DNA from: Candidatus Latescibacterota bacterium
GTDB taxonomy: Bacteria; Latescibacterota; UBA2968; SICM01
Direction of reading: 5' to 3'
Assembly (NCBI GenBank): GCA_965217865.1
Contig: CBDCJO010000002.1
Location: 1,728,001-1,792,000, forward strand
DNA length: 64,000 nt
Part shown: one piece after another, positions 1 through 18,100 of the stretch
How the letters are laid out: each line of letters begins with the position of its first letter
Numbering within the stretch: position 1 is the first letter of the stretch
Notes under the pieces: model-generated
Database searches by the model: none
The model's input: the letters and a program-made list of their open reading frames with translations, nothing else
Told to the model about the DNA's origin: nothing
Made by a program: the position numbers and the translations under genes

Positions 1-933
1 GCGTCGTTCTCCCGCCTGGACGAATGTGAGCTTGTCGCCCTTGCGGCTCGGAATCCTCAAACCGGTCCTCCCCTCGCCCAGCGCTACGAGGTCTCCCTGC
101 ACACAGATTGGCGAGATCTGGTCGCGCGGAAGGATCTGGATGCAGTGCTCGTCCTCACCCACAATGAGAGCCACGGTCCGATCGCTCTCGGGGCCATGGA
201 GACAGGTAAACACGTGTTTATGGAATATCCGCTTGCCCGCCGGCTGGAGGAAGGTGAGCGTCTGGTGGATCGGGCGGAATCCACGGGGTGCGTCCTACGT
301 TTAACGCACAACGAGCCCCTCTCTGCGGCGCACCGCATGCTCAAACAGGAGGTCAGTACGCTCGGGCAACTGTTGACCGCGATCTTTGTGCGCCTGACAC
401 CGGGTCGCGGGGGACGGCCGGAGATCTTGTTCAACCTGAACATTTCAGGTCCTCCGGTCCTGTTTTTCATCTACCATATCTATCCCCTCGTGGATCTGTT
501 CGGCCCAGCGGAGTGGGTGGAGGGCCACGCGGAGTATGTGGGAATGAAATCATCCGGCCAGTATGAACGGTTTGTCAATACGGTGAGCGTGGGATTCACG
601 CAAGGTGGCCTGGGGAATTGGACGTGGGCGGGTGGGATTGCCATCCAGGCCGCCGAAGAGTTCCAACGAGGGTTCTTGCTCGTTGAGGGAACACTGATCC
701 GGCAGGGTGGACGCTGGTGCCGGTCCAATTCCGAAGGGTTGGAGGAGTTGGAGGTCCCTGATGAGGAAACGGGGCGTTCCCTCGAGAAATTATTTCTCAA
801 TGAGGTCAATGGCAAAGAGACGCTCTGGCGGGAGGATATGGGACGGGCGCTAGATGCGATTCGAATCAGCCTGGCCGCTGAAACGTCCGTCCGGGAAGGT
901 CGGAGGGTCCAAGTAAGGGAAAATGAAAAATGA
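1..933 (+). CDS. Gfo/Idh/MocA-family oxidoreductase, 5' end outside the window
   Basis: Frame is open from base 1 (ASFSRLDECELVALAARN...DWRDLVARKDLDAVLVLTHNESH...GKHVFMEYPLA). Stop overlaps the next ATG. Confidence 0.85.
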   Translation, partial: ASFSRLDECELVALAARNPQTGPPLAQRYEVSLHTDWRDLVARKDLDAVLVLTHNESHGPIALGAMETGKHVFMEYPLARRLEEGERLVDRAESTGCVLRLTHNEPLSAAHRMLKQEVSTLGQLLTAIFVRLTPGRGGRPEILFNLNISGPPVLFFIYHIYPLVDLFGPAEWVEGHAEYVGMKSSGQYERFVNTVSVGFTQGGLGNWTWAGGIAIQAAEEFQRGFLLVEGTLIRQGGRWCRSNSEGLEELEVPDEETGRSLEKLFLNEVNGKETLWREDMGRALDAIRISLAAETSVREGRRVQVRENEK

Positions 934-3053
934 AAAATGAAAATTGGAGCCGAACCTTGGTAAGATCCTTTTTTTCGATGATCGTGTTGATCGCGACGAT
1001 CATCACGGATATTCAAGCTGCAGAGGAATCGGAGGAGGGGAGCGAAATCCCCGTCTATACGGTCGAAGGTTTGGTGGTCACGGGGGAAAAAATTCCGGAG
1101 GCCAACACCATCGCAACAAAGGTTCCGACTCCGATTCGTCTGACGCCCGCGAGTGTGAGTGTGGTTAAGCGGTCCCTGTTCGAAAGGCAAGAGGCCGCGA
1201 TTCTTGGAGATGCCCTCAAAAACATTAGTGGCGTCAACGTCCAGACCGGATTCGGAGTGCATGACTTCTTTGTCATTCGCGGTTTTGATTCTCTGGACAA
1301 CGGGCTTGTGCTTACGGATGGGGCCGCGGAACCGGAAGCCACCTTTTATCACCTGTACAACGTCGACCGGGTTGAGGTTTTGAAAGGGCCGGCAGCCTTT
1401 TTGTATGGGGGGAATCCGCTTTCCGGAGCAGTCAATCTGACCCGGAAGCAACCCGTTTTCAAAAACTTTTCACGCATCGCGGGTTCCTTCGGCCGGTTCC
1501 AATCCTACCGGGGAAGCATGGATCTTGGAATGGCGAACCCGAAGGCCGGAACGGCTTTTCGTCTGAACGCCTTTTTTCAGGATTCAGATCATTACCGGGA
1601 TGAGAAGAAGAACTCCAGCGTCGGAATCAATCCGGGTTTTACGTGGCGGATCGGACACCATAGTTCCCTCGGTTTCAATTTTGAGTTTGCAAGAAATGAA
1701 TTCCGATCCGACTCCGGGTTGCCTCTCATTGACAATAAAATACCCGATGTTCCCAGGACCCGTTCTTACCAAACCCCGTTTGATATATCCAACCAGAAGA
1801 TATACCGGTTCCGGATCGATTTCAGATCGCGGATCCACGAATCCCTTTCCATTCGCAACAAGCTCTATTGCACCGATTTCGACTGGGTGTCCCGGGGTAC
1901 GCTTTTTAACGGATCCATCCCAAAGGGAGGGGGGTCGGTTGATCTCATTCGTTCGCTGTTGATTTTGGACGACCATCAGAAGCTCACCGGGAATCAGCTC
2001 GAAGTCCTCTTATCGTTCCAATCGGGCACCTTCGAGCATCGGCTCCTGACCGGTTTCGAGTTCAACCGATGGGCCGACCGATTCACCCTGGATGTCGCCG
2101 CTCTTCCGACCATCGACTTGCTCGATCCGGTGGAGACAGCCCGCAAACCATTTGCAATCATCCCGAGTCAATCGTCTTCGGCGGATGCGCGCAGCATGGT
2201 TTTCGCCCCCTATATTGTCGAGCAGGTCGTATTTCCGGGTCGAAATCGGCTGTTTCTGGGAGGGCGCCTCGATGGGATCGATTACAAAGACCCGGTCACA
2301 GACACCCATCGAACATATCGCAAGCTCAGCCCGATGCTTGGATTTGTCAGCGAACCGATCAAAAACCTCTCGCTTTATGCCAATGGCGGCCGTGCCTTTG
2401 CGCCCCCTTCCAGCCGGGTCGTGGGCGACCGTGAGGCCGAAGAGAGCACACAGTTCGAGGTCGGTCTCAAAAACGGACTCCTGGACGAGAGGCTGAACGC
2501 CACGCTGGCTTTCTATCGTTTGAAGAAGGACAATATCGCGATTGCGGACGAGAGCGGCATTTTAAGCCAAACCGGCGACCAGCGATCCAGCGGAATGGAG
2601 CTTGAAATTGCGGCACGCCCGGGGCCGAACTGGCATGCCTTTTTGACGTATGCTTACATCGACGCGGAGTTGACCCGTTTTAAACAGAGTGTGGTTGTTC
2701 CCACCCCCGGCGGAATGGTTTTTCAGGTCTTGGACCGTTCGGGGAATAGACCCGCTTTCTCCCCCAGACACCTTCTAAATATTTGGACGGATGTGGAATT
2801 CGGGAATGACGTGGGAATCGGTGGGGGGATGCGTTACGTGGGCCCTCAGTTCGTCTCCGAGGAAAACCTTTCAAAAGTTAACGGTGTTGTGACGTTCGAT
2901 GCCATGTTCACGTATAACCCCGTACATTGGGGATGGCGTTTGAGTTTTAAAAATCTTACGAACCAGAAGTACGAGACAAGGGGATTCGGATCGTTTTCAG
3001 TCATTCCGGCGACCCCTTTTGCAGTTTACGGGTCGATCGCCTTGAGGTTGTGA
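930..3053 (+). CDS. TonB-dependent receptor (siderophore-receptor-like)
   Basis: Signal peptide, plug (TPASVSVV, IRGF, VDRVEVLKGPAAFLYG), C-terminal NLTNQKY strand. Confidence 0.93.
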   Translation: MKNENWSRTLVRSFFSMIVLIATIITDIQAAEESEEGSEIPVYTVEGLVVTGEKIPEANTIATKVPTPIRLTPASVSVVKRSLFERQEAAILGDALKNISGVNVQTGFGVHDFFVIRGFDSLDNGLVLTDGAAEPEATFYHLYNVDRVEVLKGPAAFLYGGNPLSGAVNLTRKQPVFKNFSRIAGSFGRFQSYRGSMDLGMANPKAGTAFRLNAFFQDSDHYRDEKKNSSVGINPGFTWRIGHHSSLGFNFEFARNEFRSDSGLPLIDNKIPDVPRTRSYQTPFDISNQKIYRFRIDFRSRIHESLSIRNKLYCTDFDWVSRGTLFNGSIPKGGGSVDLIRSLLILDDHQKLTGNQLEVLLSFQSGTFEHRLLTGFEFNRWADRFTLDVAALPTIDLLDPVETARKPFAIIPSQSSSADARSMVFAPYIVEQVVFPGRNRLFLGGRLDGIDYKDPVTDTHRTYRKLSPMLGFVSEPIKNLSLYANGGRAFAPPSSRVVGDREAEESTQFEVGLKNGLLDERLNATLAFYRLKKDNIAIADESGILSQTGDQRSSGMELEIAARPGPNWHAFLTYAYIDAELTRFKQSVVVPTPGGMVFQVLDRSGNRPAFSPRHLLNIWTDVEFGNDVGIGGGMRYVGPQFVSEENLSKVNGVVTFDAMFTYNPVHWGWRLSFKNLTNQKYETRGFGSFSVIPATPFAVYGSIALRL

Positions 3054-3646
3054 ATTTGAATCACCAAGACCTTGCCGCCAATAATCTGAACAGTCTCTTC
3101 GTCGCCCAATCGAGAAAACCGGCTCAACTCAGGGAGATCCAGCTGGATAGGCTTTCCCCGTTTCAAAGGGCCCTGTTAGTCGTTGATAGCGTAACCCAGT
3201 TCATCGAAGCGTATGCGATGGAGCCGGTCGAGATCCTCCTGGTTACACAGAGGACCTTTCAGCTTCCCACGGATCATGAATTGCTCGAGGCAGCGGGGGG
3301 GACGGATGTTGTTTCTCGAACTGTTCTGTTAAGAGGAAAAGCCAGCTCAACGCCATTCGCTTACGCGGAGTCGCTCCTCGTTCAGGACCGGCTTCCGGAT
3401 CCCATCAGAAAGGGTCTTGAAACCGAAGGGAAAGGTCTCGGCCTCCTGCTGCGCCGCAACCGGATTGAGACCCATCGGGAAATGCTATGGTACGGTATGG
3501 AAAAGGGGAGGGAACTGCCAGCTCCGATCCGCCACCTGGAGGGCGAACCGATCATCGATCGCACGTACCGGATCATTGCAGGGGGACGGCCCATGATGCA
3601 GATCAGCGAAAAATTCCCTGCGGTCGAAATTCAAACTCAATTATAA
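3050..3646 (+). CDS. Chorismate pyruvate-lyase-like protein (UbiC/DUF98 type, 4-hydroxybenzoate synthase)
   Basis: LSPFQRALLV-D-SVTQFIE, RTVLLRG, FAYAESL, LGLLL...IETHRE, RTYRII..GRPMMQISEKFP. Confidence 0.8.
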   Translation: MNLNHQDLAANNLNSLFVAQSRKPAQLREIQLDRLSPFQRALLVVDSVTQFIEAYAMEPVEILLVTQRTFQLPTDHELLEAAGGTDVVSRTVLLRGKASSTPFAYAESLLVQDRLPDPIRKGLETEGKGLGLLLRRNRIETHREMLWYGMEKGRELPAPIRHLEGEPIIDRTYRIIAGGRPMMQISEKFPAVEIQTQL

Positions 3647-4944
3647 TGGGAACAAATATATCCGACCCTTTCTCCGAGACGCTTGATCCTGACCGATTGG
3701 TTCAACACCAGCTCGATCGGTTCCAGGTGATGCTCCCGGAAATTTTGAAATCCAATGGGTTCTATCGAAAAAAACTCAGAGCCGCGGGGGTCAATAACCC
3801 GGGGGAGATTCAGGGGTTTGACGATTTTCGCGGTTTGCCTTTCACGACTAAGGACGAGCTTTCGTCCGATCAACGGGATCATCCGCCTTACGGAACGAAT
3901 CTCACCTTTCCCGTGGATCGTTATATCCGCATCCATCAAACTTCGGGTACGAGGGGCGATCCTTTGCGATGGTTGGACACCGAGGAGAGTTGGGGATGGT
4001 GGGGGCGTTGCTGGGAAGCTGTCTACCACGCTGCGGGGGTGCGCTCGGAGGACCGGATTTTTTTCGCTTTTTCATTCGGCCCTTTCATCGGATTCTGGAG
4101 CGGTTACGAAGGGGCCCGTACTCTCGGTATGATGTCTATTGCGGGAGGAGGAATGTCCTCCGAGCAGCGATTGAAGGCCATCTTTGAAAACGAAGCGTCC
4201 GTTCTGATTTCTACGCCGACATATGCCTTACACCTGGCGGAGGTCGCTAGAAGAGAGGGTCGAAATCCCCGGGATTCTAAGATTCGGATCACGATTCAAG
4301 CCGGGGAAGCGGGCGCCAGCCTTCCGGCGACCAGAAAGCGGATCGAAAAGGCCTGGGGTGCCCGATGCTACGACCATGCAGGGGCCACTGAGGTGGGTGC
4401 CTGGGGATTCGGGTGCAAGATCCAGTCCGGGCTCCACCTGAATGAAGGGGAATTCATCGGCGAGGTGATCGACCCATCGACAGGGGACCCGGTGAATGAT
4501 GGAGAACTCGTCATCACAAACCTGGGGCGGGTCGGATCCCCCGTTATCCGTTTTCGGACAGGCGACAGAGTGCAATTGGAAGACTCTTCCTGCCCCTGCG
4601 GGCGGACCTTCAGGCGTTTTGCCCGAGGGGTCACCGGACGGATCGACGATGCGCTGACCGTGCGAGGGAATACGATTTTCCCAAGCGCTCTGGAGGATAT
4701 CGTTCGTGGATACCCTGACGTCGAAGAGTTTTCAGTGAACATCTATCGGAGAAAAGAACTGGATGAAATGGATATCCGGATCGAGCTCCACGACGATCGG
4801 TCCGGAACCATCGTCTCTGATGTTGCCAGATCAATTAGGAATGCATTTGGATTTCGTGCCCGCGTGATACCCGTCCCACAAGGCACATTGCCGCGATTCG
4901 AACACAAGGCAAATCGTTTCAAAGACGACCGCAAGCCAGGTTGA
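3646..4944 (+). CDS. Phenylacetate-CoA ligase (PaaK)-family aryl-CoA ligase
   Basis: LPFTTKDEL, HQTSGTRG, STPTYALHLAE, DHAGATE, GELVITNLGR, RFRTGD, LPRFEHKA. ATG overlaps the upstream TAA. Confidence 0.9.
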   Translation: MGTNISDPFSETLDPDRLVQHQLDRFQVMLPEILKSNGFYRKKLRAAGVNNPGEIQGFDDFRGLPFTTKDELSSDQRDHPPYGTNLTFPVDRYIRIHQTSGTRGDPLRWLDTEESWGWWGRCWEAVYHAAGVRSEDRIFFAFSFGPFIGFWSGYEGARTLGMMSIAGGGMSSEQRLKAIFENEASVLISTPTYALHLAEVARREGRNPRDSKIRITIQAGEAGASLPATRKRIEKAWGARCYDHAGATEVGAWGFGCKIQSGLHLNEGEFIGEVIDPSTGDPVNDGELVITNLGRVGSPVIRFRTGDRVQLEDSSCPCGRTFRRFARGVTGRIDDALTVRGNTIFPSALEDIVRGYPDVEEFSVNIYRRKELDEMDIRIELHDDRSGTIVSDVARSIRNAFGFRARVIPVPQGTLPRFEHKANRFKDDRKPG

Positions 4945-4976
4945 AGGTTGCGGGATCCTGGAAAGACCGGATAAAG

Positions 4977-6245
4977 ATGCCTATGGGAACTGCCAATCGT
5001 GATTCCTACGATGTCATCGTCATCGGAGGAGGACCGGCCGGAAGCACTACCGCAGCCCTGGTCGCGGAGAAGGGGCATTCGGTTCTCCTTCTGGAGCGAG
5101 ATCCCCTTCCCCGTTTCAAAATCGGCGAGTCCCTGATGCCTGCCACTTATTGGACATTCAAACGGCTGGGTGTCCTGGACGGGTTGAAGGCGAGTCTCTA
5201 TCCAAAAAAATACAGTGTCCAATTTTTTTCGGGATCCGGGATGGGTTCTGCGCCTTTCTATTTTTTTGAGGATGATCCCCACGAGTGCTCCGTTACGTGG
5301 CAGGTTCTACGGAGCGAGTTCGATGAGATGTTGCTCGAAAACGCACGGGAAAAGGGTGCTGAGATCCGCCGTGGGGTAAGCGCTCGCGATGTTTTGTTTC
5401 ACGGAGAACAGGCGGTTGGGGTCCGGGCCATAATCCCGGAAGGGAAAGAGGTGAATTTCGCAGCAAGCGTTGTTGTGGATGCGAGCGGTCAAGGCGCTCT
5501 GGTCTCTCGAAAATTGAAGAGCAAAACCGCTGACCCAAACCTGAAAAAGGCTTCCGTATTCACCCATTTCAAAGGGAGCCACCGAGACAAGGGGATCGAT
5601 GAGGGCGCGACATTGATTCTCCATACCGAGAATAAAGATTCGTGGTTCTGGTATATTCCCCTGTCCGAGAACCGGGCAAGCGTGGGCGTTGTGGGGGAGC
5701 TTGACTACCTGCTTCGGGATCGGCAGGATTCGCCTCAAATGATTTTCGAGGATGAACTCGAGAGATGTCAGGCCCTCAAGCGACGGTTGGCCGGCGCAGA
5801 GCAGGTATTTCCGGCCAAAGTCACGCAGGATTTCTCCTATCGTTCCAGCCGCATCGCGGGACATGGCTGGGTCCTGGTTGGGGATGCATTCGGCTTTTTG
5901 GATCCCATCTATTCCTCCGGGGTTTTTTTGGCGCTCAAGTCCGGAGAACTCGCCGCAGACGCCATAAATCTCGCACTTGAGGATGACTGCTTCACGGAAG
6001 ATCGGTTGGGAGGGTTCGCACCGGAACTTATCGGCGGAATGGAGAATATCCGAAGGTTGATCTATGCGTTTTACACGAAGGACTTCAGTTTTTCAGAGTT
6101 TCTTATGGAATTTCCGGAGTGCAGGCAAGGGATCGTCGACATCCTCAGCGGTAATATTTTTAAAGAGGGGATCGGGGAAATCTTTCCGAAAATGGATAAG
6201 ATGTGCAGTGACAGTAGCAGTGGCAGTAGCAGGGAAAACCAGTAA
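4977..6245 (+). CDS. Flavin-dependent halogenase-like FAD oxidoreductase
   Basis: GGGPAG FAD motif, PRFKIGES, PKKYSVQF (candidate catalytic Lys), WFWYIP (WxWxIP), GDAFGFLDPIYSSGV. Confidence 0.8.
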   Translation: MPMGTANRDSYDVIVIGGGPAGSTTAALVAEKGHSVLLLERDPLPRFKIGESLMPATYWTFKRLGVLDGLKASLYPKKYSVQFFSGSGMGSAPFYFFEDDPHECSVTWQVLRSEFDEMLLENAREKGAEIRRGVSARDVLFHGEQAVGVRAIIPEGKEVNFAASVVVDASGQGALVSRKLKSKTADPNLKKASVFTHFKGSHRDKGIDEGATLILHTENKDSWFWYIPLSENRASVGVVGELDYLLRDRQDSPQMIFEDELERCQALKRRLAGAEQVFPAKVTQDFSYRSSRIAGHGWVLVGDAFGFLDPIYSSGVFLALKSGELAADAINLALEDDCFTEDRLGGFAPELIGGMENIRRLIYAFYTKDFSFSEFLMEFPECRQGIVDILSGNIFKEGIGEIFPKMDKMCSDSSSGSSRENQ

Positions 6246-6682
6246 GCAGTTAGCAATAGCAACGGCAGGACAAAGGAGATAAGGATGTCGGGGAGTTTTA
6301 AAGATTTAAAAGTTTACCAAATGGCATATGAGTTGGCTATGGAAATTTTTGAACTTACCAAAAGCTTTCCGAAAGATGAAGCTTACTCCTTAACTAATCA
6401 GATTAGACGTTCTTCTCGTTCAGTATGTTCAAATATTGCAGAAGGGTATAGAAAACGCCGCTATCAAAAAATTTTGCTTTAAAAATGTCCGACGCAGATT
6501 CCGAATCCAGTGAAACCCTGGTCTGGTTAGATTTTTCAAAAGACTACGGGTACATTAATGATGATGTATATCAGTCGCTGTTAGTTAAGTACGAAGAGGT
6601 GGGAAGAATGTTAGGGGGAATGGCCGACCATCCTGGTCGCTTTACGCCCAAAGATGATTTTCCTGCTTCTGCCACTGCTACT
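6213..6682. repeat. Inverted repeat arms (6213-6238 / 6658-6682) built from GCAGTR hexamers, flanking the four-helix-bundle gene
   Basis: agtagcagtggcagtagcagggaaaa versus ttttcctgcttctgccactgctact: reverse complements apart from 1 mismatch and 1 gap. Confidence 0.85.
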
Positions 6683-6703
6683 TATTTCGAAGAGAATGAG
6701 TAA
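6285..6703 (+). pseudogene. Four-helix-bundle protein (23S rRNA intervening-sequence protein family), frameshifted
   Basis: FKDLKVYQ...FPKDEAYSLTNQIRRSSRSVCSNIAEG, then SDADSESSETLVWLDFSKDYGYI. One extra A in the A6 run at about 6465-6471 restores a single ORF, so this may be a sequencing error. Confidence 0.85.
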
Positions 6704-6712
6704 AAACGGTGT

Positions 6713-6958
6713 ATGAAATCCCGAAAGGACGAGATGAAAAAAAATATTCCGAGAGGACTGCTCTATCTGGCGTTTTTCGTGCTCTATCTGCTTCACAACG
6801 ATCTCTGGTTTTGGCATGATCCAAGCCTGGTGTTGGGGATACCGATCGGGTTGATCTATCACATCGGGTTCTGCGTGGCGGCCTCGATATTGATGATTCT
6901 GCTGGTCAACTTTGCGTGGCCCCGGAATCTGCATGCCAACGGGGAAAGGGGAAAATGA
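6713..6958 (+). CDS. DUF3311-like small membrane protein (symporter partner)
   Basis: LLHNDLWFW...LVLGIPIGLIYH, two TM helices; overlaps the symporter start. Confidence 0.75.
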   Translation: MKSRKDEMKKNIPRGLLYLAFFVLYLLHNDLWFWHDPSLVLGIPIGLIYHIGFCVAASILMILLVNFAWPRNLHANGERGK

Positions 6959-8412
6959 CACTTTCGATAATTATCGCATATCTGGTTCTGGTGCTTCTCA
7001 TCGGCGCCCTGAGCCATCGATTTTTTCGGGGTACGGGTGAGGATTATTTCGTGGCCAGCCGGACGATCGGCCCCTTTCTCCTGTTGATGTCGTTATTCGG
7101 GACCAACATGACGGCATTTGCGATTCTTGGTGCTTCAGGAGAGGCTTATCACGAAGGAATCGGAGTATTCGGACTTATGGCTTCCGCTTCCGCGTTGATT
7201 ATTCCGAGTGTCTTTTTTTTCGTCGGTACCCGGTTATGGTCTCTGGGTAAACGCCATGGATACATCACGCAGGTTCAATATTTCCGGGAACGTTGGGATT
7301 CGGACGGCCTCGGTCTGTTTCTGTTCATCGTTTTGATTGCGCTGGTTGTTCCTTATTTGTTGATCGGTGTGATGGGAGGGGGGATAACGCTTCATCAAAT
7401 CACCGATGGACAGGTGCCGGAGTGGATCGGTGGTCTCCTGGTTTGTGCTGTGGTTTTGACTTATGTCTGCTATGGCGGTATTCGGGGAACGGCCTGGGCA
7501 AATGCCTTCCAAACCCTTGTGTTTATGATCCTGGGGGGGGTGACGTTCTTTGTAATTGTCCATCAAATGGGGGGCCTTTCCCAGGTCGTGTCAGCCGTCG
7601 CAGAACGACATCCCGAATTGCTGATCCGAGGAGATCAGATCACGCCCGTCAAGTTGCTCACCTATACATGCATCCCCCTGTCTGTGGGGATGTTCCCGCA
7701 TATGTTTATGCATTGTCTGACCGCGAGGAGCGCAGAGACATTTCGGTATCCCCTGATGTTCTACCCGATTTGTATTGCGATCGTGTGGATCCCCAGCGTG
7801 CTCCTCGGCATCTTCGGGAACCTGGACTTTCCGGGCCTAAAAGGCCCTGTGGCTAATTCGATTCTGGTGAAGATGATCGATCTTCATGCACCGGGCCTCC
7901 TTGCAGGGCTTTTGGCCGCGGGTGTATTCGCCGCAATCATGTCTTCACTCGATTCACAGGCCTTATCCATTGGAAGTATGTTCACACACGATATCGTCCG
8001 CCACTACGGATTCCGCGATCAGATGAGGGAAGGGCAACAGGTCCTGGTCGGCCGTCTTTTCGTTGTTCTTGTTCTGGCTGTGACCTATTTCCTCTCGCTG
8101 GTCTCCGCGAGAAGTATCTTCAAGCTTGCCATATGGTCATTTACGGGATTTGCAGCCCTATTTCCGGTAGTCGTCGCTGCCCTCTTCTGGAGGCGAAGTA
8201 CTAAATATGGGGCTGTGGCTTCTATAGCGAGCGTCGTCCTCTTATGGACATACTTTTTCATTCAGGGGTGGCAGACCCCCGGCTACACGGTGGGTGGGAC
8301 CGGCGTGATGCCGGTAGCCGTGATTCTGGCCGTATCCAGTGCGGCTATGATTATCGTTTCCATGGCGACCCAGCCCCCGGAGGAATCAATCGTAAGAAAA
8401 TATTTTCCATGA
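6955..8412 (+). CDS. Sodium:solute symporter family protein
   Basis: EDYFVASR, YGGIRGTAWANAFQ, AAIMSSLDSQ; many TM segments. Confidence 0.92.
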   Translation: MTLSIIIAYLVLVLLIGALSHRFFRGTGEDYFVASRTIGPFLLLMSLFGTNMTAFAILGASGEAYHEGIGVFGLMASASALIIPSVFFFVGTRLWSLGKRHGYITQVQYFRERWDSDGLGLFLFIVLIALVVPYLLIGVMGGGITLHQITDGQVPEWIGGLLVCAVVLTYVCYGGIRGTAWANAFQTLVFMILGGVTFFVIVHQMGGLSQVVSAVAERHPELLIRGDQITPVKLLTYTCIPLSVGMFPHMFMHCLTARSAETFRYPLMFYPICIAIVWIPSVLLGIFGNLDFPGLKGPVANSILVKMIDLHAPGLLAGLLAAGVFAAIMSSLDSQALSIGSMFTHDIVRHYGFRDQMREGQQVLVGRLFVVLVLAVTYFLSLVSARSIFKLAIWSFTGFAALFPVVVAALFWRRSTKYGAVASIASVVLLWTYFFIQGWQTPGYTVGGTGVMPVAVILAVSSAAMIIVSMATQPPEESIVRKYFP

Positions 8413-9716
8413 GGATCGCTTTCGTCAGCGCCGGTGCCGGAGGGATGTACTGCGGGAGCTGCATCCACGATAATACCCTCGCTGCGGCTTTGCAGAGGAA
8501 GGGTTGTGATGTCGCCCTTATCCCAACTTATACGCCCCTTCGCACCGATGAAGCCAATGTCAGCATCGATCGGATTTTTTACGGGGGAATGCACGTCTAT
8601 CTCCAGCAGAAGCTTGCCCTCTTCCGACATACCCCCTGGATTCTTGACCGCTTGATGGATCCCCTGGTAAAGGGGTTATCCCGCCTGAACAGCTCTACGG
8701 ACCCCAAAAAACTGGGGGCGCTCACGGTCTCGGTGCTTCAGGGTGAAGAAGGAAGGCAACATAAGGAACTCGAAAAGCTGATCAGCTGGCTGAAGTCATC
8801 TTTCAGGCCGGATATCGTCCACCTCACCAATTCGTTATTCTCGGGGCTTACCAGGAGGATTAAGGAGGAGCTCGGGGTTCCTGTATTGTGCGCGGTTCAG
8901 GGGGAAGATCTATTTCTCGATGGGTTGGCAGAGCCGCACCGGTCTCAGGCGCTAAATCTTGTGCGAGAAAGGGCGATCGATGTCGATGGTTTTATCGCGC
9001 CATGCCGGTTCTATGCGGAATTCATCAAGACATATCTGAAAATCCCCGAGGGAAAGGTTCACGAGGCCAGACTCGGTTTAAACCTTCAGGGCCACGGGAC
9101 AGGCCGTGGACCCGAACCCTCTCCTTTTTCGATCGGATATTTAGCCCGAATATGTCCTGAAAAGGGTCTCCATCTCCTGGTCGAAGCGTTTTATCTTTTG
9201 ACAGAGCGGATCGGGCGGGACAATATTCGCCTGAAAGTTGCAGGCTACCTCGGAGAAAAGGACCGGGCTTACTTCGATGAGTTGAGAAGGCAAATCGATT
9301 TACGGGGATTGGCCGAGTGTTTCGAATATGCTGGGGAGATCGATCGGATTCAGAAGATCGAATTTCTAAACCGGCTGCACGTGCTATCGGTGCCGACCCT
9401 GTTTCAGGATCCGAAGGGACTTTTCATCCTGGAGGCGCTTGCGAATGGCATTCCGGTCGTGCAGCCCCGTCACGGCGCCTTCCCCGAGCTGGTCGAAGCG
9501 ACCGGAGGTGGGATCCTCGTGGAACCAGGGTCACCGGATGCTATTGCAGAGGGGATTCTTCAGCTCCTGGAAGACCCGGAGTACCGGTCCCGACTGGGTC
9601 AAGCAGGGAAGGAGGCCGTGGAGAGGAAGTTCAACGATGCGGTGATGGCGGATGAGACAATAGAGATATATCGAAAATACACGGTTCCATGTCCCAAGGT
9701 TCAGGTTCCGTGTTAA
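8409..9716 (+). CDS. Glycosyltransferase family 4
   Basis: GYLARICPEKGL, PKGLFILEALANGIPVV, GAFPELV; ATGA coupling to the symporter. Confidence 0.9.
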   Translation: MRIAFVSAGAGGMYCGSCIHDNTLAAALQRKGCDVALIPTYTPLRTDEANVSIDRIFYGGMHVYLQQKLALFRHTPWILDRLMDPLVKGLSRLNSSTDPKKLGALTVSVLQGEEGRQHKELEKLISWLKSSFRPDIVHLTNSLFSGLTRRIKEELGVPVLCAVQGEDLFLDGLAEPHRSQALNLVRERAIDVDGFIAPCRFYAEFIKTYLKIPEGKVHEARLGLNLQGHGTGRGPEPSPFSIGYLARICPEKGLHLLVEAFYLLTERIGRDNIRLKVAGYLGEKDRAYFDELRRQIDLRGLAECFEYAGEIDRIQKIEFLNRLHVLSVPTLFQDPKGLFILEALANGIPVVQPRHGAFPELVEATGGGILVEPGSPDAIAEGILQLLEDPEYRSRLGQAGKEAVERKFNDAVMADETIEIYRKYTVPCPKVQVPC

Positions 9717-9885
9717 ATCAAAAGTTCAAAACCCAGATTCTGAGTTCCAAAAACCAAGAGGGAATGGGAGATCGCTTGGACCACGAAACTGGGTGGGGAT
9801 GAGGTATGGAGGGGAGGCCGAAAATTTTTGGATAACGGGAAGAAGAGAAGACGTGAATTTTGAAATATAAGGAAAGGGGGATCTC

Positions 9886-10356
9886 GTGCCCTGGCTGATC
9901 TTCGCGATGATGACCGTTTGCTCTTGGGGGCTTTACGGTGTCTTTTTGCATACCGGTCAGATTTCCATGGCTGATCCGATCAACGGACGTTACAAGGCAT
10001 TCTTGTTTGTCGGGATCGCTTATCTCATGACCGCGGTGCTGGGATCACTGATCGTACTGCTCGTGAATGGTGCTTCGTGGGATTTTCCTGCGAAGGGCAT
10101 GACCTGGTCGATTCTCGCGGGGGTCGTGGGTGCGCTGGGTGCATTCGGCGTTCTGCTGGCCTTCGGAGCAAAGGGGACTCCCAGCGTGGTCATGGCGATC
10201 GTTTTCGCAGGCGCACCGATTGTCAATGCGATCGTTGCGATGTCCCTTCATCCCCCAGAAGGGGGATTTTCAAGTCTGAGCTGGCCGTTCCTCCTGGGTA
10301 TCCTCATGGCGGCTATGGGGGGGTGCTTAGTATCCCTGTACAGGCCGGGGACATGA
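9886..10356 (+). CDS. Small EamA/DMT-like membrane protein
   Basis: Five hydrophobic helices, WGLYG and VFAGAPIVN motifs. Confidence 0.6.
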   Translation: MPWLIFAMMTVCSWGLYGVFLHTGQISMADPINGRYKAFLFVGIAYLMTAVLGSLIVLLVNGASWDFPAKGMTWSILAGVVGALGAFGVLLAFGAKGTPSVVMAIVFAGAPIVNAIVAMSLHPPEGGFSSLSWPFLLGILMAAMGGCLVSLYRPGT

Positions 10357-10502
10357 GTCGGGGGTCAGGGGTCGGAGGTCAGAGGTCAGAGGTCAGGGAT
10401 CAGGGTCGGGGGAAAGTGAAGATTGAATATTGAAAAGATCCACAGGACCACAAGAAAGTCCTGAGTGGTTCAAATGTTCAATTTTCCGATATTCAATATT
10501 CA
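10355..10502. repeat. Heptamer tandem tract (RGGTCRG) followed by a nested palindrome
   Basis: gagtcgg gggtcag gggtcgg aggtcag aggtcag aggtcag ggatcag; then tgaagattgaatattgaaaa ... ttttccgatattcaatattca enclosing ccacaggac/gtcctgagtgg. Confidence 0.8.
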
Positions 10503-10513
10503 TTGAGTTTAAG

Positions 10514-10933
10514 ATGGCATCTGAATTCCATACAAAACGGCGAATAGAATTCTCCGACACGGACATGGCCGGGATCGTTCATTTTGCCCGGTTTTTTGTT
10601 TTCATGGAAGCCGCCGAGCACGAATTCCTTCGTTCCCTCGACATGAGTGTCTCGATGGAGCACGATGGAAACGTGATCAGCTGGCCCAGGCTGTCCACTT
10701 CGTGCGAATACCTGCATCCTGTCAGGTTCGAGGACGAGCTGGGTATCCATCTGAAGGTTGAAAGGATTGGCACCAAATCCATCACATACCAATTTGAATT
10801 TTCAAACGGAGATGCGATCGTTGCCCGGGGAAAGCTGAAGGCTGTTTGTTGCATCTGCAATCCGGGGGAAGATATGAAGGCGACTCCGATACCCAATTTT
10901 ATCACGGAACGGATGAAGGGAGAATCCGCGTAA
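10514..10933 (+). CDS. Acyl-CoA thioesterase (4-hydroxybenzoyl-CoA thioesterase/YbgC hotdog fold)
   Basis: RRIEFSDTDMAGIVHFARFFVFMEAAE motif. Confidence 0.9.
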   Translation: MASEFHTKRRIEFSDTDMAGIVHFARFFVFMEAAEHEFLRSLDMSVSMEHDGNVISWPRLSTSCEYLHPVRFEDELGIHLKVERIGTKSITYQFEFSNGDAIVARGKLKAVCCICNPGEDMKATPIPNFITERMKGESA

Positions 10934-10982
10934 GGGAAGGAGAAAACGGATCTCTCAGGTTTAAACCTGATCGAAGCCGACC

Positions 10983-11666
10983 ATGTCCAGCTCGCCATCA
11001 CTTAAAGTTTCCGATATCACCAAAAGCTTCGAGAGAGAAGCGGGTCCCATCGAGGTGCTCAAGGGAATTTCGTTTGAGATGACCGAGGGTCAATCGCTTG
11101 CGATTACCGGTCCCTCGGGTTCCGGAAAGAGCACCCTTTTGCATTTGATCGGTTCTTTGGACAGGCCGTCGGCCGGATTGGTCGAGATCAATGGGATCGA
11201 TCCAGCCGGTCTTCGAGAACCGGAATTAGCCCGATTTCGGAACCGTGTCGTGGGTTTCGTCTTTCAGGACCACCATCTTTTGCAGCAGTATTCCGTTCTT
11301 GAAAATGTGCTCATTCCCACCCTGGCGCACGGCAAACCTGATTCCGAATCCGAAAATCGTGCAAGAGAAATCCTCGAACGGGTCGGGCTTTCCGAACGCC
11401 TGGATCATCTCCCTTCGGCGTTATCCGGGGGAGAATGCCAGCGGGTTGCGGTCGCACGAGCGCTAATTAATCGTCCCGCACTTTTGCTCTGCGATGAGCC
11501 CACGGGCAATCTCGACCGAAATACCGCCCATTCTGTCGCCTCGGTTTTATTCGAACTCCACCGCGCAGAAAAGAATATCCTGATCGTTGTGACCCACAGC
11601 CTCGACCACCTCCCCCTTTTTGATCGGTGTTTGGAATTGAAGGAGGGAACTTGCGTCGAAGTTTAA
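10983..11666 (+). CDS. ABC transporter ATP-binding protein (LolD/MacB type)
   Basis: GPSGSGKST, GFVFQ, LSGGECQRVAVARAL, DEPTGNLD, VVTH. Confidence 0.95.
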   Translation: MSSSPSLKVSDITKSFEREAGPIEVLKGISFEMTEGQSLAITGPSGSGKSTLLHLIGSLDRPSAGLVEINGIDPAGLREPELARFRNRVVGFVFQDHHLLQQYSVLENVLIPTLAHGKPDSESENRAREILERVGLSERLDHLPSALSGGECQRVAVARALINRPALLLCDEPTGNLDRNTAHSVASVLFELHRAEKNILIVVTHSLDHLPLFDRCLELKEGTCVEV

Positions 11667-14600
11667 TCTATTTCTGGCGCGTCAACACGGCGGTGATCGT
11701 TGCCGCCGCGATTGCCACTTCGGTACTCACGGGTGCGTTTCTTGTGGGTGATTCCGTCCGGGGGAGCCTGAGAGACCTCACCCTGGATCGGCTGGGTCGA
11801 ATCGATTATGCGTTGACCTCAGACCGGTTTTTCCGCGAAGGTTTAGCACGCGAACTGTCCAACGAGAGGTCCTTTTCATCCCGGTTTGATGATGCTGTTC
11901 CTGCGATTTTGTTGAACGGGTCCGCACTGGACGTCAAGGTGGGATCGAGGGCTTCCGGCATCCAAATCCAAGGCATCGATGAACGCTTCCTGGCCCTGAT
12001 GGCCGACCAGCCGGGGTTTCCCGACGGATTCTTCCTGAAGAGACCGGATCAAAACTTCCCTTCGATCGTCATCAACGAATCCCTTCAGAGGGAGCTGGGT
12101 TCCGAAATCGGCGATCCCATCCTGATCTCTTTTGAAAGACAGAGCGAGGTTCACCGTGAATCCCTGCTTGGCCGCCGAAACTCCGCGGACGTCGTTCGAT
12201 CCCTCCGACTCACCCTTACTCATGTCATCCCGGACCGGGGTACCGGAAGGTTCGGTCTTCGACCCCGTCAGGGCACCCCGCTGAATGCCTTCGTCTCTCT
12301 ACCTGTGTTGGCCCAAGCCCTTGGACAGGAGGGCCGGGTCAACACCCTTTTAACGGGTCAAAAGGGGTCATCCCCGCCCGGCTTCTCCGAGCGGAATGGG
12401 ACGCAAACGCTGCAGGCCCTACTCGGGGGCGTTTTGAAGCTGGACGACCTGGGCTTAATTCTGCGGCGGGACATGGACCGTGTTTCTCTCGAAAGCAAAC
12501 GGTACTTGCTTTCCCCTCACACGGTCGAGGTTGCAAGATCGCTTTCGATTGAGCTCAGGACGCCGCATTTGCCCCTTTTCACTTATCTGGCAAATTCCAT
12601 CAGGGGGAACAAACGAACCATTCCTTATTCGACGATCACCGCCATTGATTTCGATTGGATCGGAAGACCTGAAGAGCAGGGGGTATTCGGGCAGATACGA
12701 TGGGCCAGTGGAACACCCGGAGGCCAACTGGCGGATGACGAGATCCTGTTGAATGAATGGACAGCCCAGGATCTGGGCGTGAAAGTCGGTGATCCCGTGA
12801 AGGTCGCTTACTATGTTGTGGGTCCGGGGGAAGAGCTTCATACCCGAGAAACGAAATTCCGGTTGAAGGGCGTTCTGGAGCTCAGCGGGTTTGCCGCAGA
12901 TCCCGGGTTGGCACCGAAATTTCCCGGAATCCTGGACGCGGATGATATTTCGGCCTGGGAGGCCCCCTTTCCGATGGACATGAAACAAATTCGTCCGAAA
13001 GATGAGGCCTACTGGGATGAGTTTGGCGCCGCTCCCAAGGCCTTTATATCAGGAAGGACGGGAAAACGCTTATGGGGAAACCGATTCGGGAGTCTTACCG
13101 GGATCTGGATCGGTTCGCCACCCGGAGGTGATCTGGAGGGGACGCTGGTCGACTTTCGTAAAGGGTTGTTGGACAGGATTAGGCCAGAGGAAGTCGGTCT
13201 TGCCTTCATCCCTGTCAAAGCGGAAGGATTAGGGGCGGCTACGGGGGCCACGGATTTCAGCGGTCTGTTCATTGGATTCAGCCTGTTTCTGATCGTGTCT
13301 GCGGCCCTTCTGGTCGGATTGCTTTTCAGGCTGGGCGTGGAGGAGCGGGTTAAGGAGGTGGGAACGTTGCTGTCGCTGGGTTATCCGATGCCCGCAATCC
13401 GTCGGCGTTTTATGGGGGAGGGGATTATCCTGGCCGGGATCGGTGGGATGCTTGGGGTTGGAGGTGCGGTCGTGTATGCCTGGCTGCTTACCTTGGGTTT
13501 GCGAACCTGGTGGTTGGCGGCAGTAGGGAGCCCTTTTATCTTCCTCCACATCGACCCACTCAGTCTGGCCGGTGGTTACCTCATCTCTCTCCTGGTGGCG
13601 CTGATTTCCATCCGGTTCTCGTTTCGATTGTTCGGCCGAATGCCTGTCCGGGCTTTATTGTCCGGTGTCGTGGACATGATTCGGGGCGGATCGGCCAGGA
13701 TGGCCAGGAGGTTGGGTTATTTTGGTCTGAGCCTGGGTGTTTTTTTGATCGTCGCTGCCCTTATCCGGGGGACGGGATCATCCGTGGAGCTTTTTTTTGG
13801 GAGCGGTGCGGCCTTTCTGACCGGGGGTCTGGCCTTTTTCTCCGTGTGGATCCAATCGCGGAGGCATCGAGGAAAGTATCGGCTGGGTTTTGGAACAATT
13901 TTAAGAATGGGAGCTAGTAACTGTGCGCGTCGTCCCGGGCGCAGCCTTCTCTGTACAGGTCTGGTGGGTTGTGCGTGCTTTGTCATCGTATCGGTGGGGT
14001 CGAGTCGTCGGGAGGAGATGCCATCTGGAACGGCGACAGGGACCGGGGGGTTCGATCTAGTTGCGGAATCGGACATCCCGCTACATCACGATCTTAACAC
14101 TGAAGCGGGCAGGTTTGAGATGGGATTTCCGAAGGAAGGGGGGTGGCTTAAGGATTCCGTAGTCTTTCCTTTTCGAACCCTCCCGGGAGAGGATGTGAGC
14201 TGTCTCAATCTTTATCGACCGGAAAGACCGAGAATTCTCGGAGTTTCCCGTGGCATGATAAGTCGGGGGGGATTTCAATTTCAGGAGGTCCTAAGCCGGA
14301 CTCTTGAGGAGGCGGAAAACCCGTGGCTCATCTTAGAGAAAGAAATCGAGCCGGGGGTGATTCCGGCGATCGGGGATTACAACTCGGTCCGATGGATTTT
14401 ACATCTGGGGCTGGGCCAGGATCTGAACATCCGGGACGAATCGGGCAGGGAGACACGGCTTCGCCTGGTCGGACTTTTGCACAACAGCCTGTTTCAGGGG
14501 GAGCTGTTGATTTCGGAAGCTTCGTTTACAAGGCTTTTTCCCAACAGGAGCGGTTACGGATATTTCCTCGTCGAGACGCCTCCCGCAAAGGACCGCGAGG

Positions 14601-15079
14601 TCGCGTTTGAACTGGAGCAAAATCTCGGCACCTATGGCTTCGACGTTTCTCGAACGGGCGAAAAGTTGGCCCGATACCAGTCCGTTGAAAACACGTACCT
14701 ATCGACGTTTCAAACGCTGGGCGGTCTCGGGCTGATTCTGGGAACTTTCGGCCTGGGGATTGTCCTGATTAGAAATGCAATCGAAAGACGTGGCGAACTG
14801 GCCACCCTGCGCGCGTTCGGTTTCCGCCGATCGACACTGATGACAATGCTTCTGGCTGAGAACGGTTTTACTCTCGTCCTCGGTCTTCTGATCGGGAGTG
14901 TCTCGGCACTCATCGCCGTGGCGCCCCATTTGATCAGCCAGGGAGGGAATATTCCCTGGTTTTCCCTTATTATCACTTTGATCCTGGTCGGCCTTTTTGG
15001 TTTGGCGGCCAGCGCCGCAGCGGCCTTCTATGCGGTCAAAGCTCCCCTTATGCCTTCCCTCAAATCGGAGAGGGGTTGA
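11651..15079 (+). CDS. ABC transporter permease with two FtsX/MacB modules
   Basis: Two repeats of the ER..E..TL..LG motif with large periplasmic loops; AGGAGG precedes TTG at 11651. Confidence 0.9.
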   Translation: MRRSLIYFWRVNTAVIVAAAIATSVLTGAFLVGDSVRGSLRDLTLDRLGRIDYALTSDRFFREGLARELSNERSFSSRFDDAVPAILLNGSALDVKVGSRASGIQIQGIDERFLALMADQPGFPDGFFLKRPDQNFPSIVINESLQRELGSEIGDPILISFERQSEVHRESLLGRRNSADVVRSLRLTLTHVIPDRGTGRFGLRPRQGTPLNAFVSLPVLAQALGQEGRVNTLLTGQKGSSPPGFSERNGTQTLQALLGGVLKLDDLGLILRRDMDRVSLESKRYLLSPHTVEVARSLSIELRTPHLPLFTYLANSIRGNKRTIPYSTITAIDFDWIGRPEEQGVFGQIRWASGTPGGQLADDEILLNEWTAQDLGVKVGDPVKVAYYVVGPGEELHTRETKFRLKGVLELSGFAADPGLAPKFPGILDADDISAWEAPFPMDMKQIRPKDEAYWDEFGAAPKAFISGRTGKRLWGNRFGSLTGIWIGSPPGGDLEGTLVDFRKGLLDRIRPEEVGLAFIPVKAEGLGAATGATDFSGLFIGFSLFLIVSAALLVGLLFRLGVEERVKEVGTLLSLGYPMPAIRRRFMGEGIILAGIGGMLGVGGAVVYAWLLTLGLRTWWLAAVGSPFIFLHIDPLSLAGGYLISLLVALISIRFSFRLFGRMPVRALLSGVVDMIRGGSARMARRLGYFGLSLGVFLIVAALIRGTGSSVELFFGSGAAFLTGGLAFFSVWIQSRRHRGKYRLGFGTILRMGASNCARRPGRSLLCTGLVGCACFVIVSVGSSRREEMPSGTATGTGGFDLVAESDIPLHHDLNTEAGRFEMGFPKEGGWLKDSVVFPFRTLPGEDVSCLNLYRPERPRILGVSRGMISRGGFQFQEVLSRTLEEAENPWLILEKEIEPGVIPAIGDYNSVRWILHLGLGQDLNIRDESGRETRLRLVGLLHNSLFQGELLISEASFTRLFPNRSGYGYFLVETPPAKDREVAFELEQNLGTYGFDVSRTGEKLARYQSVENTYLSTFQTLGGLGLILGTFGLGIVLIRNAIERRGELATLRAFGFRRSTLMTMLLAENGFTLVLGLLIGSVSALIAVAPHLISQGGNIPWFSLIITLILVGLFGLAASAAAAFYAVKAPLMPSLKSERG

Positions 15080-15101
15080 TCTCCAAGAAGCAGGAGATAT
15101 A

Positions 15102-16733
15102 TCAGGAGTCGGGGGCCGGATCCAATGGCAACTCGTAACACGCAGCCTCCCGGTCGTTCCTGACGAGTAGATAAGATCCGGCCAGCGCCGGATTGTTCCA
15201 TGTCTTGCCCCTGAGTGCCGGAAAGCTGCTGAGCTCTTTGAATCGGTTCGGGTCTGCTTCGACCAGTGCAATCTCGCCTGATTCGGCCAGTACGATCAAG
15301 ATGTCTCCAACCAGGATCATCTGTCCGTGTCCGTAGCGCCCCCGCTTCCACGCGCGTTGACCGTCGGTGAGATTCAAACAGACCAGGACACCGTCATCCA
15401 GCCCATATAGATATCCCCCGCGGTGAACGACGTTCGTGAACTTGGCCTTAAGGCGTGTTGTCTCCCAAACGAGCGTTGCTTCCAAATTTCCTTTCTCATT
15501 CCGAAAAATCTGAAACAGCTTGCAGCCGATACCATAGCCGCTTGAAACGAATACGCGATCCCCGGGCAAGGGGACGGGTTGAGCGACGCATTCCACGCCT
15601 TCAGGCCATGGATGCTCCCAGAGGAGACTCCCGGTGACCGGATCGTGTGATGCCACATTTGCCCGGTTGAAGATGAGGATTTGAGGGACCCCCGCCAGCC
15701 TGGTGATCAGGGGAGAGCTATAGCCCGCGGGATCCTCTCCCCCGCCCCACACGAGCCGGCCGGACTCCTGGTGGTAAGCGATCAGGGACCTTCCCCCATG
15801 CCCTCCAGCACTGACTACGACGAGACTGTCGATGATCAGCGGAGAACCGCTCATCCCCCAGTGGTTCATGTTTGCGTTGTTCGATTCGATGATATCGTGA
15901 GACCAGATCCGCCTTCCCGTTCGAAGATCGAGACAGTTGAGGATTCCGGTGGCGCCCAGGGTGTAGACACGATTCTTTTCGATCGTCGGTGTGGCTCGAG
16001 GCCCGATCCCTGCAAGGGTCGTCTCATACCTGGTTTTATCGCTGTGCCGCCACCTTTCCTGACCGGTTTTCAGGTCGTAACAGACGACCATCTCCAGTTC
16101 CCCGCTCTGCTCCTGAGTGACCGCATCATTACCGACAACCGCGAATGCGGACCAACCCTCCCCGATTTCCCTTCTCCATATCAATCGCGGCGGACGCTTC
16201 GACCAATCCCGTGATATGGGGATCCCCGGGAGGACCGCATTACGATCCGGTCCCAGAAACTGCGGGTAGTCCTCAACTGAAGACGAGGGTGCACTATCGA
16301 TATCGTGTAAGAAAGTGTCAGGAACGATCGTGTTCATTCCTGAACGCTCAACCCATCGCCAAGTTAGAATGGGAACCATGTCTCCACTCACGCCACCGAC
16401 CCGGAGCAGACCCACGGACGAAGCAAACACGAGGAGGAAGACAGCGAACACAAGCAGACGAATTTTCAGGGATGTACGGGAAAAGAACAGCCACCAGATC
16501 AGGAGCGCTAGGACCGTCACGATCGACACGGATATCGTCTTAAAGGCCTGCGATTGTCGGCTCGGGGCGTCGGATGACCATATGAAGACGATCAACAATA
16601 GGGACAACAGAACCACAACGGGAAGGGGCCACCAGCGGATGGGATTCCCGGATGAACGTTCCCCTTCCGGTTTCCGAGAAGCGCCTGATCCGCGGGACCG
16701 GATCGATTTCAGGATTGATATGATGCCACCCAT
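15102..16733 (-). CDS. Membrane-anchored PQQ-like/BamB-like beta-propeller protein
   Basis: N-terminal TM helices, YPQFLGPDRN, repeated CxDLxTG..W blades, GPRATP, TWNNPAL. Confidence 0.85.
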   Translation of the reverse strand: MGGIISILKSIRSRGSGASRKPEGERSSGNPIRWWPLPVVVLLSLLLIVFIWSSDAPSRQSQAFKTISVSIVTVLALLIWWLFFSRTSLKIRLLVFAVFLLVFASSVGLLRVGGVSGDMVPILTWRWVERSGMNTIVPDTFLHDIDSAPSSSVEDYPQFLGPDRNAVLPGIPISRDWSKRPPRLIWRREIGEGWSAFAVVGNDAVTQEQSGELEMVVCYDLKTGQERWRHSDKTRYETTLAGIGPRATPTIEKNRVYTLGATGILNCLDLRTGRRIWSHDIIESNNANMNHWGMSGSPLIIDSLVVVSAGGHGGRSLIAYHQESGRLVWGGGEDPAGYSSPLITRLAGVPQILIFNRANVASHDPVTGSLLWEHPWPEGVECVAQPVPLPGDRVFVSSGYGIGCKLFQIFRNEKGNLEATLVWETTRLKAKFTNVVHRGGYLYGLDDGVLVCLNLTDGQRAWKRGRYGHGQMILVGDILIVLAESGEIALVEADPNRFKELSSFPALRGKTWNNPALAGSYLLVRNDREAACYELPLDPAPDS

Positions 16734-17828: not shown

Positions 17829-17841
17829 AACGGGAAAAACT

Positions 17842-17965: not shown

Positions 17966-18100
17966 TGAATCGCTATGGGTAAAACTTAGATACCCGCAGC
18001 AGGAGTCATTCCGGGAGGATTCGTATACCCCTTGAATGTTGGCTAAAATTATGTTAAATTTGGATATTGGAATAAGCCATGACGTATATCTAACTTCATA

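Follow-up and report, generated by a model that had tools for sequence, protein, structure and literature searches.

Gene content of the cluster

We analyzed a 64 000-nt stretch of a Candidatus Latescibacterota genome (hereafter the window), which opens inside a conserved gene cluster for the putative modification of an aromatic acid. The cluster comprises about 20 genes and begins some 16 kb upstream of window position 1, so that only its downstream half falls within the window; its product may serve a family of secreted beta-propeller proteins resembling those that bind pyrroloquinoline quinone (PQQ). The preliminary description of this DNA had named twelve genes, and both their positions and their families were confirmed. 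The cluster extent given there was correct for the window genes, although the upstream continuation and a frameshifted inserted gene had been overlooked. The features are listed below in window coordinates, negative values lying before window position 1.

-16521: propeller
-14075: propeller
-12620: EhpF/GriC-like adenylase, 359 amino acids (EhpF match)
-11382: aldehyde dehydrogenase (ALDH)-fold reductase, directly after the adenylase
-9728: iron-type alcohol dehydrogenase (Fe-ADH)
-8504: propeller
-7555: HemN-like radical S-adenosylmethionine (SAM) enzyme
-5803: propeller
Between the propeller at -5803 and the TonB receptor: glucose/sorbosone dehydrogenase, three aldo-keto-reductase-like open reading frames (labeled from motifs alone) and the Gfo gene
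1..933, plus strand: Gfo/Idh/MocA oxidoreductase, 3' part (PF01408; its start lies 86 nt before the window)
930..3053, plus strand: TonB-dependent receptor of the siderophore-receptor type (TIGR01783, 239 bits, cut-off 223.5)
3050..3646, plus strand: Rv2949c/DUF98-like chorismate pyruvate-lyase (PF01947, 50.4 bits, cut-off 22)
3646..4944, plus strand: PaaK-like adenylate-forming ligase (PDB matches; TIGR02155, 206.9 bits, cut-off 646.3)
4977..6245 (start 4977 or 4983), plus strand: flavin-dependent halogenase-like enzyme (top PDB matches are halogenases)
6285..6664, plus strand: frameshifted four-helix-bundle gene in two reading frames, with short flanking repeats
6713..6958, plus strand: DUF3311 small membrane protein, symporter partner (PF11755)
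6955..8412, plus strand: sodium:solute symporter (SSS; PF00474)
8409..9716, plus strand: GT4 glycosyltransferase (PF00534)
9886..10356, plus strand: five-helix DMT/EamA-like membrane protein (five hydrophobic segments, no Pfam match)
10514..10933, plus strand: hotdog-fold 4HBT/YbgC-type thioesterase (PF13279, PF03061)
10983..11666, plus strand: LolD/MacB-type ABC ATPase (TIGR02211, 250 bits, cut-off 308)
11654..15079, plus strand: double-FtsX permease, 1141 amino acids (PF02687 twice; ten hydrophobic segments)
15102..16733, minus strand: membrane-anchored PQQ-like beta-propeller, convergent on the permease (PF13360; three N-terminal hydrophobic segments)

The co-oriented arrangement with overlapping start and stop codons that had been described was found at 5 of the 10 junctions among the eleven plus-strand genes from receptor to permease, namely receptor/lyase, lyase/ligase, DUF3311/symporter, symporter/GT4 and ATPase/permease. 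A motif scan from -17 to +17 kb agreed with the claimed absence of a carrier protein, its single match falling inside the permease, and no polyketide synthase (PKS), acyl carrier or lipid-handling enzyme was found among the cluster genes. Promoter and terminator scans at the cluster gave a signal no better than shuffled sequence, and atlas searches returned the same Pfam families and nothing further.

Conservation and distribution

We observed that the gene set recurs in Latescibacterota, Poribacteria, KSB1, Acidobacteriota and Verrucomicrobiota; the record titles of the loci name Latescibacterota, Poribacteria, KSB1, Thermoanaerobaculia, Terriglobia and Verrucomicrobia. In all eight relatives' regions examined, orthologues with 42–79% identity stand in the same gene order with single genes missing, so that the arrangement cannot be due to chance. 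A search for the gene set in other genomes had been proposed earlier, and the set indeed co-occurs widely. The cluster is present in one copy per genome, with 55–79% identity across phyla.

For presence and absence we compared two genome samples, in which detection of the adenylase defined a carrier: 27 of 40 relatives of the same class (two thirds, leaving 13 without the cluster) and 40 of 151 Acidobacteriota (about a quarter, leaving 111 without it and one 35% match set aside). The adenylase was also found in 3 of 151 Verrucomicrobiota and was not found in the two genomes of the same family; at least 8000 sequence clusters resemble it. From Planctomycetota, homologues of two cluster genes only came up. 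Frequencies of the remaining genes were counted in the best 80 of 457 GTDB loci with 10-kb flanks (some contigs are shorter), an orthologue being defined by at least 40% identity. In these 80 loci the ligase was found 64 times, GT4 51, the radical SAM enzyme 49, the receptor 44, the DMT-like protein 40, and the thioesterase, ATPase and permease 39 times each, followed by the symporter and DUF3311 (26 each), the convergent propeller (16) and the lyase (2).

The flavoprotein has 61–69% identical orthologues in 25 of the 40 same-class relatives, plus one 47% match in a different context. Among Acidobacteriota an orthologue (E<1e-100; two weaker matches set aside) occurs in 35 of the 40 carriers and in none of the 111 other genomes, including cases where it is unlinked. 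The symporter shows a comparable pattern in the same-class relatives (23 of 27 cluster-bearing versus 0 of 13 others). Where clusters are rearranged, the radical SAM and flavoprotein genes remain together; adenylase, reductase, ATPase and permease likewise remain together in rearranged acidobacterial clusters, mostly with GT4. The constant core consists of the adenylase–reductase pair, the radical SAM enzyme, the flavoprotein, GT4, the exporter and the propellers.

Several loci carry additional genes. In nine Poribacteria loci (L034, L038, L039, L042, L044-L046, L048 and L049) a glucose/sorbosone-type dehydrogenase gene lies between ligase and flavoprotein; in the window's own genome such a gene lies just upstream of the window. 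The adenylase–reductase–Fe-ADH stretch is interrupted by extra genes at L146:2660-6957 and L107:1673-2419: reductase and Fe-ADH are separated by a creatininase-family gene in two loci, and adenylase and reductase by the gene of a thiamine-diphosphate enzyme in one. At L013:6576-9342 (genome G007) three genes, presumably LutABC-like (lactate utilization), take the place of the DUF3311–symporter pair between flavoprotein and GT4.

Adenylase–reductase pair and radical SAM enzyme

Residues 19–359 of the adenylase align with EhpF (E 1e-41), and the protein is about 35% identical to plasmid proteins annotated as arylcarboxylate reductase. The ALDH-fold reductase that follows it keeps its cysteine and an HGPG motif in 42 of 42 orthologues, HGPG standing where ordinary ALDHs carry ExGG. 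The order of a short adenylase and an ALDH-fold protein with the cysteine is that of GriC/GriD and EhpF/EhpG. On a Halalkalicoccus plasmid (L184:4508-9332) an SSS gene stands with EhpF-like, ALDH-like and short-chain dehydrogenase/reductase genes, the ALDH-like one being 25% identical to that of the cluster; this unit is a minimal archaeal relative of the reductase module.

The radical SAM enzyme is of the HemN/NocN type according to a PDB search and falls into class C. For GT4, the permease and the radical SAM enzyme, PDB searches returned generic relatives or none, the permease being the protein with no solved sequence relative.

Halogenase-like flavoprotein and GT4

Thirteen of the 14 PDB matches of the flavoprotein at E<=1e-10 are named halogenases, with whose lysine Lys78 aligns. 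The protein has GxGxxG, and among 101 orthologues the lysine is kept in 100 while WxWxIP and FxDPxxS are kept in all; the Trp_halogenase Pfam score is 86.2 bits. The halogenase motifs are therefore intact, and its earlier designation as a halogenase-like flavoenzyme fits well. The NCBIfam models QhpG (E 3.8e-38), LodB and GoxB match it too, all below cut-off, and the halogenases score higher; in view of such matches a hydroxylase or reductase activity is conceivable too. The closest solved relatives belong to the PltA/CmlS/ChlB4 types, which we take to be distinct from the Bmp5 type, and judged by these PDB relatives the proposed analogy to the marine bromophenol (bmp) pathway appears weak. 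No flavin reductase or carrier-protein partner was found among the cluster genes (the genome was not searched for one, and it may act in trans); for this reason a CoA ester or an enzyme-bound acyl group may be the substrate.

Among 64 GT4 orthologues, 61 share an N-terminal YCGxC, three show ICG[ST]C or VCGSC instead, and 60 keep a third cysteine. The CxxC and third cysteine (window 8409-8470) are unusual for the family and possibly form a metal or redox site.

Chorismate lyase and PaaK-like ligase

The predicted fold of the lyase matches 2NWI (E 7e-12) and the chorismate lyase 1FW9 (E 1e-5), with GntR effector domains ranking between the two; the protein passes the PF01947 cut-off and has the UbiC/UTRA fold. 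In the DG[TS]VT (DGTVT) motif of the family, intact in 116 of 120 homologues, one residue is missing from the window copy, which so does not carry the family signature. The short form also occurs in other strains and in contigs of other studies, and a one-base gap seen in one sequencing run sits in a run of G. We considered whether the copy is a pseudogene, which is not supported: strain variants comprise 19 synonymous and 14 non-synonymous changes and look purifying.

In the same-class sample the lyase tracks the cluster, being present in 20 of 27 cluster-bearing genomes and in 0 of 13 others (by genus 7 of 9 versus 0 of 8, kin not being independent). Its position was determined in 14 of these 20 genomes: it adjoins cluster-type genes in 5 and lies at unrelated sites in 9. 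Among the 151 Acidobacteriota the lyase was found in three, in each of them directly 5' of a 60–63% identical ligase, which is followed in two by a gene for 3-deoxy-D-arabino-heptulosonate 7-phosphate (DAHP) synthase. This three-gene unit was seen at L163:8910-11931 and L164:9713-12656, in two Acidobacteriota. A lyase directly before the ligase, with DAHP synthase next in two cases, points to 4-hydroxybenzoate, and chorismate synthase is present in the window's genome. The route from chorismate through 4-hydroxybenzoate to an activated aryl acid, as proposed in the preliminary description, is hence a good inference: the lyase would be the source of 4-hydroxybenzoate and the ligase a putative aryl-CoA ligase. 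A true PaaK was not indicated, as the ligase scores below the TIGR02155 cut-off and no paa genes occur among the annotated neighbors.

In a tree of 32 of the 77 ligases, the window ligase groups with the three acidobacterial lyase-linked ligases (95/90, with no clade test), and these four lyase–ligase cases may therefore represent one event. A further locus, L100, has the order receptor–lyase–ligase–flavoprotein with a ligase from a different branch of the tree.

In the form first proposed, however, the route is not supported on one point: of the 40 acidobacterial carriers, 2 have the lyase and 15 the ligase, and the pair is consequently regarded as an optional 4-hydroxybenzoate feeder. The lyase in particular is best read as standing outside the core. 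Two other ideas were considered and rejected. Genes of the futalosine pathway were found in 5 of 5 genomes checked, one of them cluster-free, and since menaquinone is made by this route respiration does not explain the lyase, so that a function in quinone synthesis is unlikely; UbiA-family genes were found in the same number of genomes checked (5 of 5, subtype not assigned). No pattern was seen in which the symporter substitutes for a missing lyase, both being present in most carriers.

Propeller family and transport genes

The whole cluster holds five propellers, four upstream and one convergent in the window, and accounts for five of the seven PF13360 proteins in the genome. With one cluster propeller as query, we found the family in all 27 same-class carriers and in 1 of the 13 same-class genomes without the cluster (E<=1e-25). 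Among the Acidobacteriota it is present in all 40 carriers and in 2 of the 111 other genomes (E<=1e-45). Part of this co-distribution is trivial because the cluster itself encodes propellers. However, four carriers hold 7–18 propeller matches each, mostly far from the cluster, and non-carriers hold almost none; such scattered copies would suit client proteins. The suggestion of a salvageable cofactor or an envelope modification rather than a toxin gains support from this co-distribution.

The eight-bladed BamB-like fold was found for one cluster propeller, which has conserved His/Asp/Glu loops of its own, and the propellers match BamB better than quinoproteins. Against the quinoprotein models TIGR03075 and TIGR04528 they score far below cut-off.

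Judging from their families, the TonB receptor would import the product or a precursor, the symporter is probably a second importer, and the double-FtsX permease a candidate exporter. The DMT/EamA-like protein is 68–78% identical in relatives, one homologue being named EamA-domain by UniRef.

Accessory and flanking genes

The stop codon of the Gfo/Idh/MocA oxidoreductase overlaps the start of the TonB receptor, and the same adjacency was seen in the relatives G007 and G023. The gene lies directly 5' of the receptor in some relatives only and is accessory. The frameshifted gene at 6285..6664, which we take to belong to a four-helix-bundle family, is absent from the relatives' clusters and is a passenger insertion between flavoprotein and DUF3311. 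It is flanked by GCAGT-type repeats (window 6200-6700), a motif found 91 times in the genome, and two of four sequencing runs have no coverage across it; a different spacer repeat, seen for instance at 10356-10400, occurs 31 times in the genome.

Beyond the cluster, window 16971-19942 encodes a 285-amino-acid protein with no Pfam match, which has a paralogue at 66% identity, together with a PhyH dioxygenase and an AraC response regulator; these genes are not conserved along with the cluster. On its other side and on the opposite strand (L001:1-1400 and L002, about -32000 to -24700) lies an alternative complex III-like operon with a multiheme cytochrome, a molybdopterin/Fe-S fusion and NrfD-like subunits, as labeled from motifs.

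Proposed pathway and alternative explanations

The gene content suggests that the product is likely derived from 4-hydroxybenzoate or a similar aromatic acid and is halogenated and sugar-tagged. The lyase would convert chorismate to 4-hydroxybenzoate, the acid being imported or otherwise supplied in lineages without it, and the PaaK-like ligase would activate the acid as a thioester. The flavoprotein may halogenate the ring and the thioesterase release the acid, whose carboxyl group would be reduced to the aldehyde by the EhpF/GriC-like adenylase with its Cys-bearing ALDH-fold partner and further to the alcohol by the Fe-ADH. Ring methylation or coupling could be the task of the HemN-like radical SAM enzyme and sugar addition that of GT4, while the product would leave the cell through the DMT-like protein and the LolD/FtsX transporter, and it or its precursor would be recovered through the TonB receptor and the symporter. 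The order given here is tentative.

Tentatively, and somewhat short of regarding it as probable, we favor the reading that this pathway makes a ligand or cofactor for the secreted PQQ-like propellers. The more specific version is rather doubtful, namely that the system serves biosynthesis, export and salvage of an undiscovered halogenated cofactor derived from 4-hydroxybenzoate, which activates a large orphan group of secreted PQQ-like propellers. If it were true, BamB-like-annotated propellers in Acidobacteriota, Latescibacterota, Poribacteria and probably Planctomycetota would be enzymes with a new prosthetic group.

A number of observations weigh against a ligand or cofactor for the propellers. 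The 45 propellers that we compared share mostly structural Gly, Trp and Pro residues; the non-structural candidates Tyr218 and Trp392 are present in 35 of the 45, and neither an invariant polar site nor a shared catalytic motif was found. Only 3 of the 176 cluster propellers have a vicinal Cys-Cys, and none of the window genome's own five does. The acido-empty-quinoprotein family (TIGR04528) was rejected as client family, since 6 of the 8 genomes with proteins over its cut-off have no cluster. Taken together, these findings do not support a shared redox site. On the side of the substrate, the window lyase is without a glycine that 117 of 120 homologues share, and genome G320 carries lyase, ligase and DAHP synthase without adenylase, flavoprotein, GT4 or propellers; given this and the rarity of lyase and ligase in acidobacterial carriers, the feeder may have a different purpose. 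In 5 of the 40 acidobacterial carriers no flavoprotein was detected, and the co-occurrence counts overstate the significance because related genomes are not independent.

The absence of an invariant polar site would suit a covalent envelope tag, in which a glycosylated aryl unit is attached to lipid or to the propellers and handled by LolD/FtsX in the manner of mycobacterial phenolic glycolipids. An Rv2949c-family lyase, an aryl ligase and a glycosyltransferase follow the mycobacterial logic, the exporter is of LolD/FtsX type, and adenylase, reductase, ATPase and permease, mostly with GT4, are the genes that stay linked in rearranged acidobacterial clusters. We consider such a tag unlikely, however: the cluster holds no PKS, acyl carrier or lipid-handling enzyme, the propellers offer no invariant Ser, Cys, Lys or Asn as attachment site, and a TonB receptor in 44 of the best 80 loci fits a soluble molecule better.

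Quite unlikely as well is a stand-alone halogenated phenolic natural product for defense or signaling, as for bmp, the 3,5-dibromo-p-anisic acid locus (baa) and Halo_AMP, with the propellers as tailoring or resistance proteins. The intact halogenase motifs agree with it, the sponge Halo_AMP clusters hold the same gene types, and in a planctomycete a lyase and a halogenase are assigned to dibromo-anisic acid by genome inference (10.1101/723874). The scattered propeller paralogues depend on the cluster, though, and dedicated import is present. Natural product clusters are typically patchy and fast-evolving, whereas this cluster is found in one copy per genome at 55–79% identity across phyla.

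Uptake and transformation, in which the cell would import aromatic acids through the receptor and the symporter, activate and reduce them and add a sugar in order to use or detoxify them, is improbable: two importers, a CoA-ligase/thioesterase pair, the reductase and the distant adenylase–ALDH pair behind the SSS gene of the haloarchaeal plasmid could be read in this way, but a chorismate lyase accompanied by DAHP synthase produces the acid and does not dispose of it, both the halogenase-like enzyme and the class C radical SAM enzyme are of a kind that serves biosynthesis, and no ring-cleavage genes were found in the clusters read. Least of all do we expect the flavoprotein and the radical SAM enzyme to build a protein-derived cofactor in the propellers, as for QhpG, LodB and GoxB, with the aryl-acid genes being secondary, for although these models match the flavoprotein and the two genes stay together when clusters split, halogenases outscore the models, the radical SAM enzyme is of the HemN/NocN type and not a peptide cross-linker, and the propellers have no conserved Trp/Cys pair besides the structural Trp docking motif.

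For the reading as a propeller ligand or cofactor, the near one-to-one link with multi-copy secreted propellers yields a testable function for these unannotated proteins. The window adds the substrate clue from chorismate to 4-hydroxybenzoate, which makes the first enzyme assays obvious. In sponge and soil communities, organohalogens may moreover stem from this cluster.

Comparison with known systems

The pathway is real and widespread, and we found no description or characterization of the cluster in the literature covered, which leaves out most subscription journals. The reductase module resembles those of grixazone (GriC/GriD) and D-alanylgriseoluteic acid (EhpF/EhpG) in its short adenylase followed by an ALDH-fold protein with an invariant cysteine. 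GriC/GriD adenylate and reduce 3-amino-4-hydroxybenzoate (3,4-AHBA), a derivative of 4-hydroxybenzoate (PMC10179220). In contrast to both systems, identity is about 35%, the cluster has no genes for phenazine or 3,4-AHBA synthesis, and the module is embedded with a halogenase, a radical SAM enzyme, GT4, transporters and propellers.

The Halo_AMP sponge clusters have hosts that include Acidobacteriota, Latescibacterota and Poribacteria (bioRxiv 10.64898/2026.08.03.742642). They share a halogenase with an adenylating enzyme, frequent PQQ-like domains, TonB, radical SAM, glycosyltransferase and thioesterase genes; unlike the present cluster, Halo_AMP is a search rule without assigned product that follows a P450-bearing family, and the main text of the preprint contains no mention of chorismate or EhpF. 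With 86.2 bits the flavoprotein lies above the level of at least 10 bits that the rule sets for Trp_halogenase; for the AMP-binding domain required within 5 kb, the adjacent ligase matches AMP-binding_C_2 only in Pfam.

With bmp and baa the cluster has in common a chorismate lyase-like gene near a flavin halogenase. Here, however, the ligase lies between lyase and halogenase, the lyase is optional and the halogenase resembles other types, and the two-gene baa locus has no counterpart to the reductase, radical SAM, GT4 and transport genes.

The PQQ system consists of pqq biosynthesis genes, the TonB receptor PqqU and quinoprotein propellers. In outline the cluster is similar, combining genes for biosynthesis with a TonB receptor and with a family of eight-bladed propellers that is co-distributed with it. 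It differs in having no pqq-type gene, in propellers without Cys-Cys and in chemistry on an aryl acid instead of a peptide; a PqqC search of the genome gave no match, but control genomes gave none either. The mycobacterial route to p-hydroxybenzoic acid derivatives (p-HBAD) and phenolic glycolipids starts from the lyase Rv2949c and joins an aryl-activating ligase to a glycosyltransferase, all of which have relatives here. Unlike that route, the cluster dispenses with a PKS or carrier domain and adds putative reduction, halogenation and radical chemistry.

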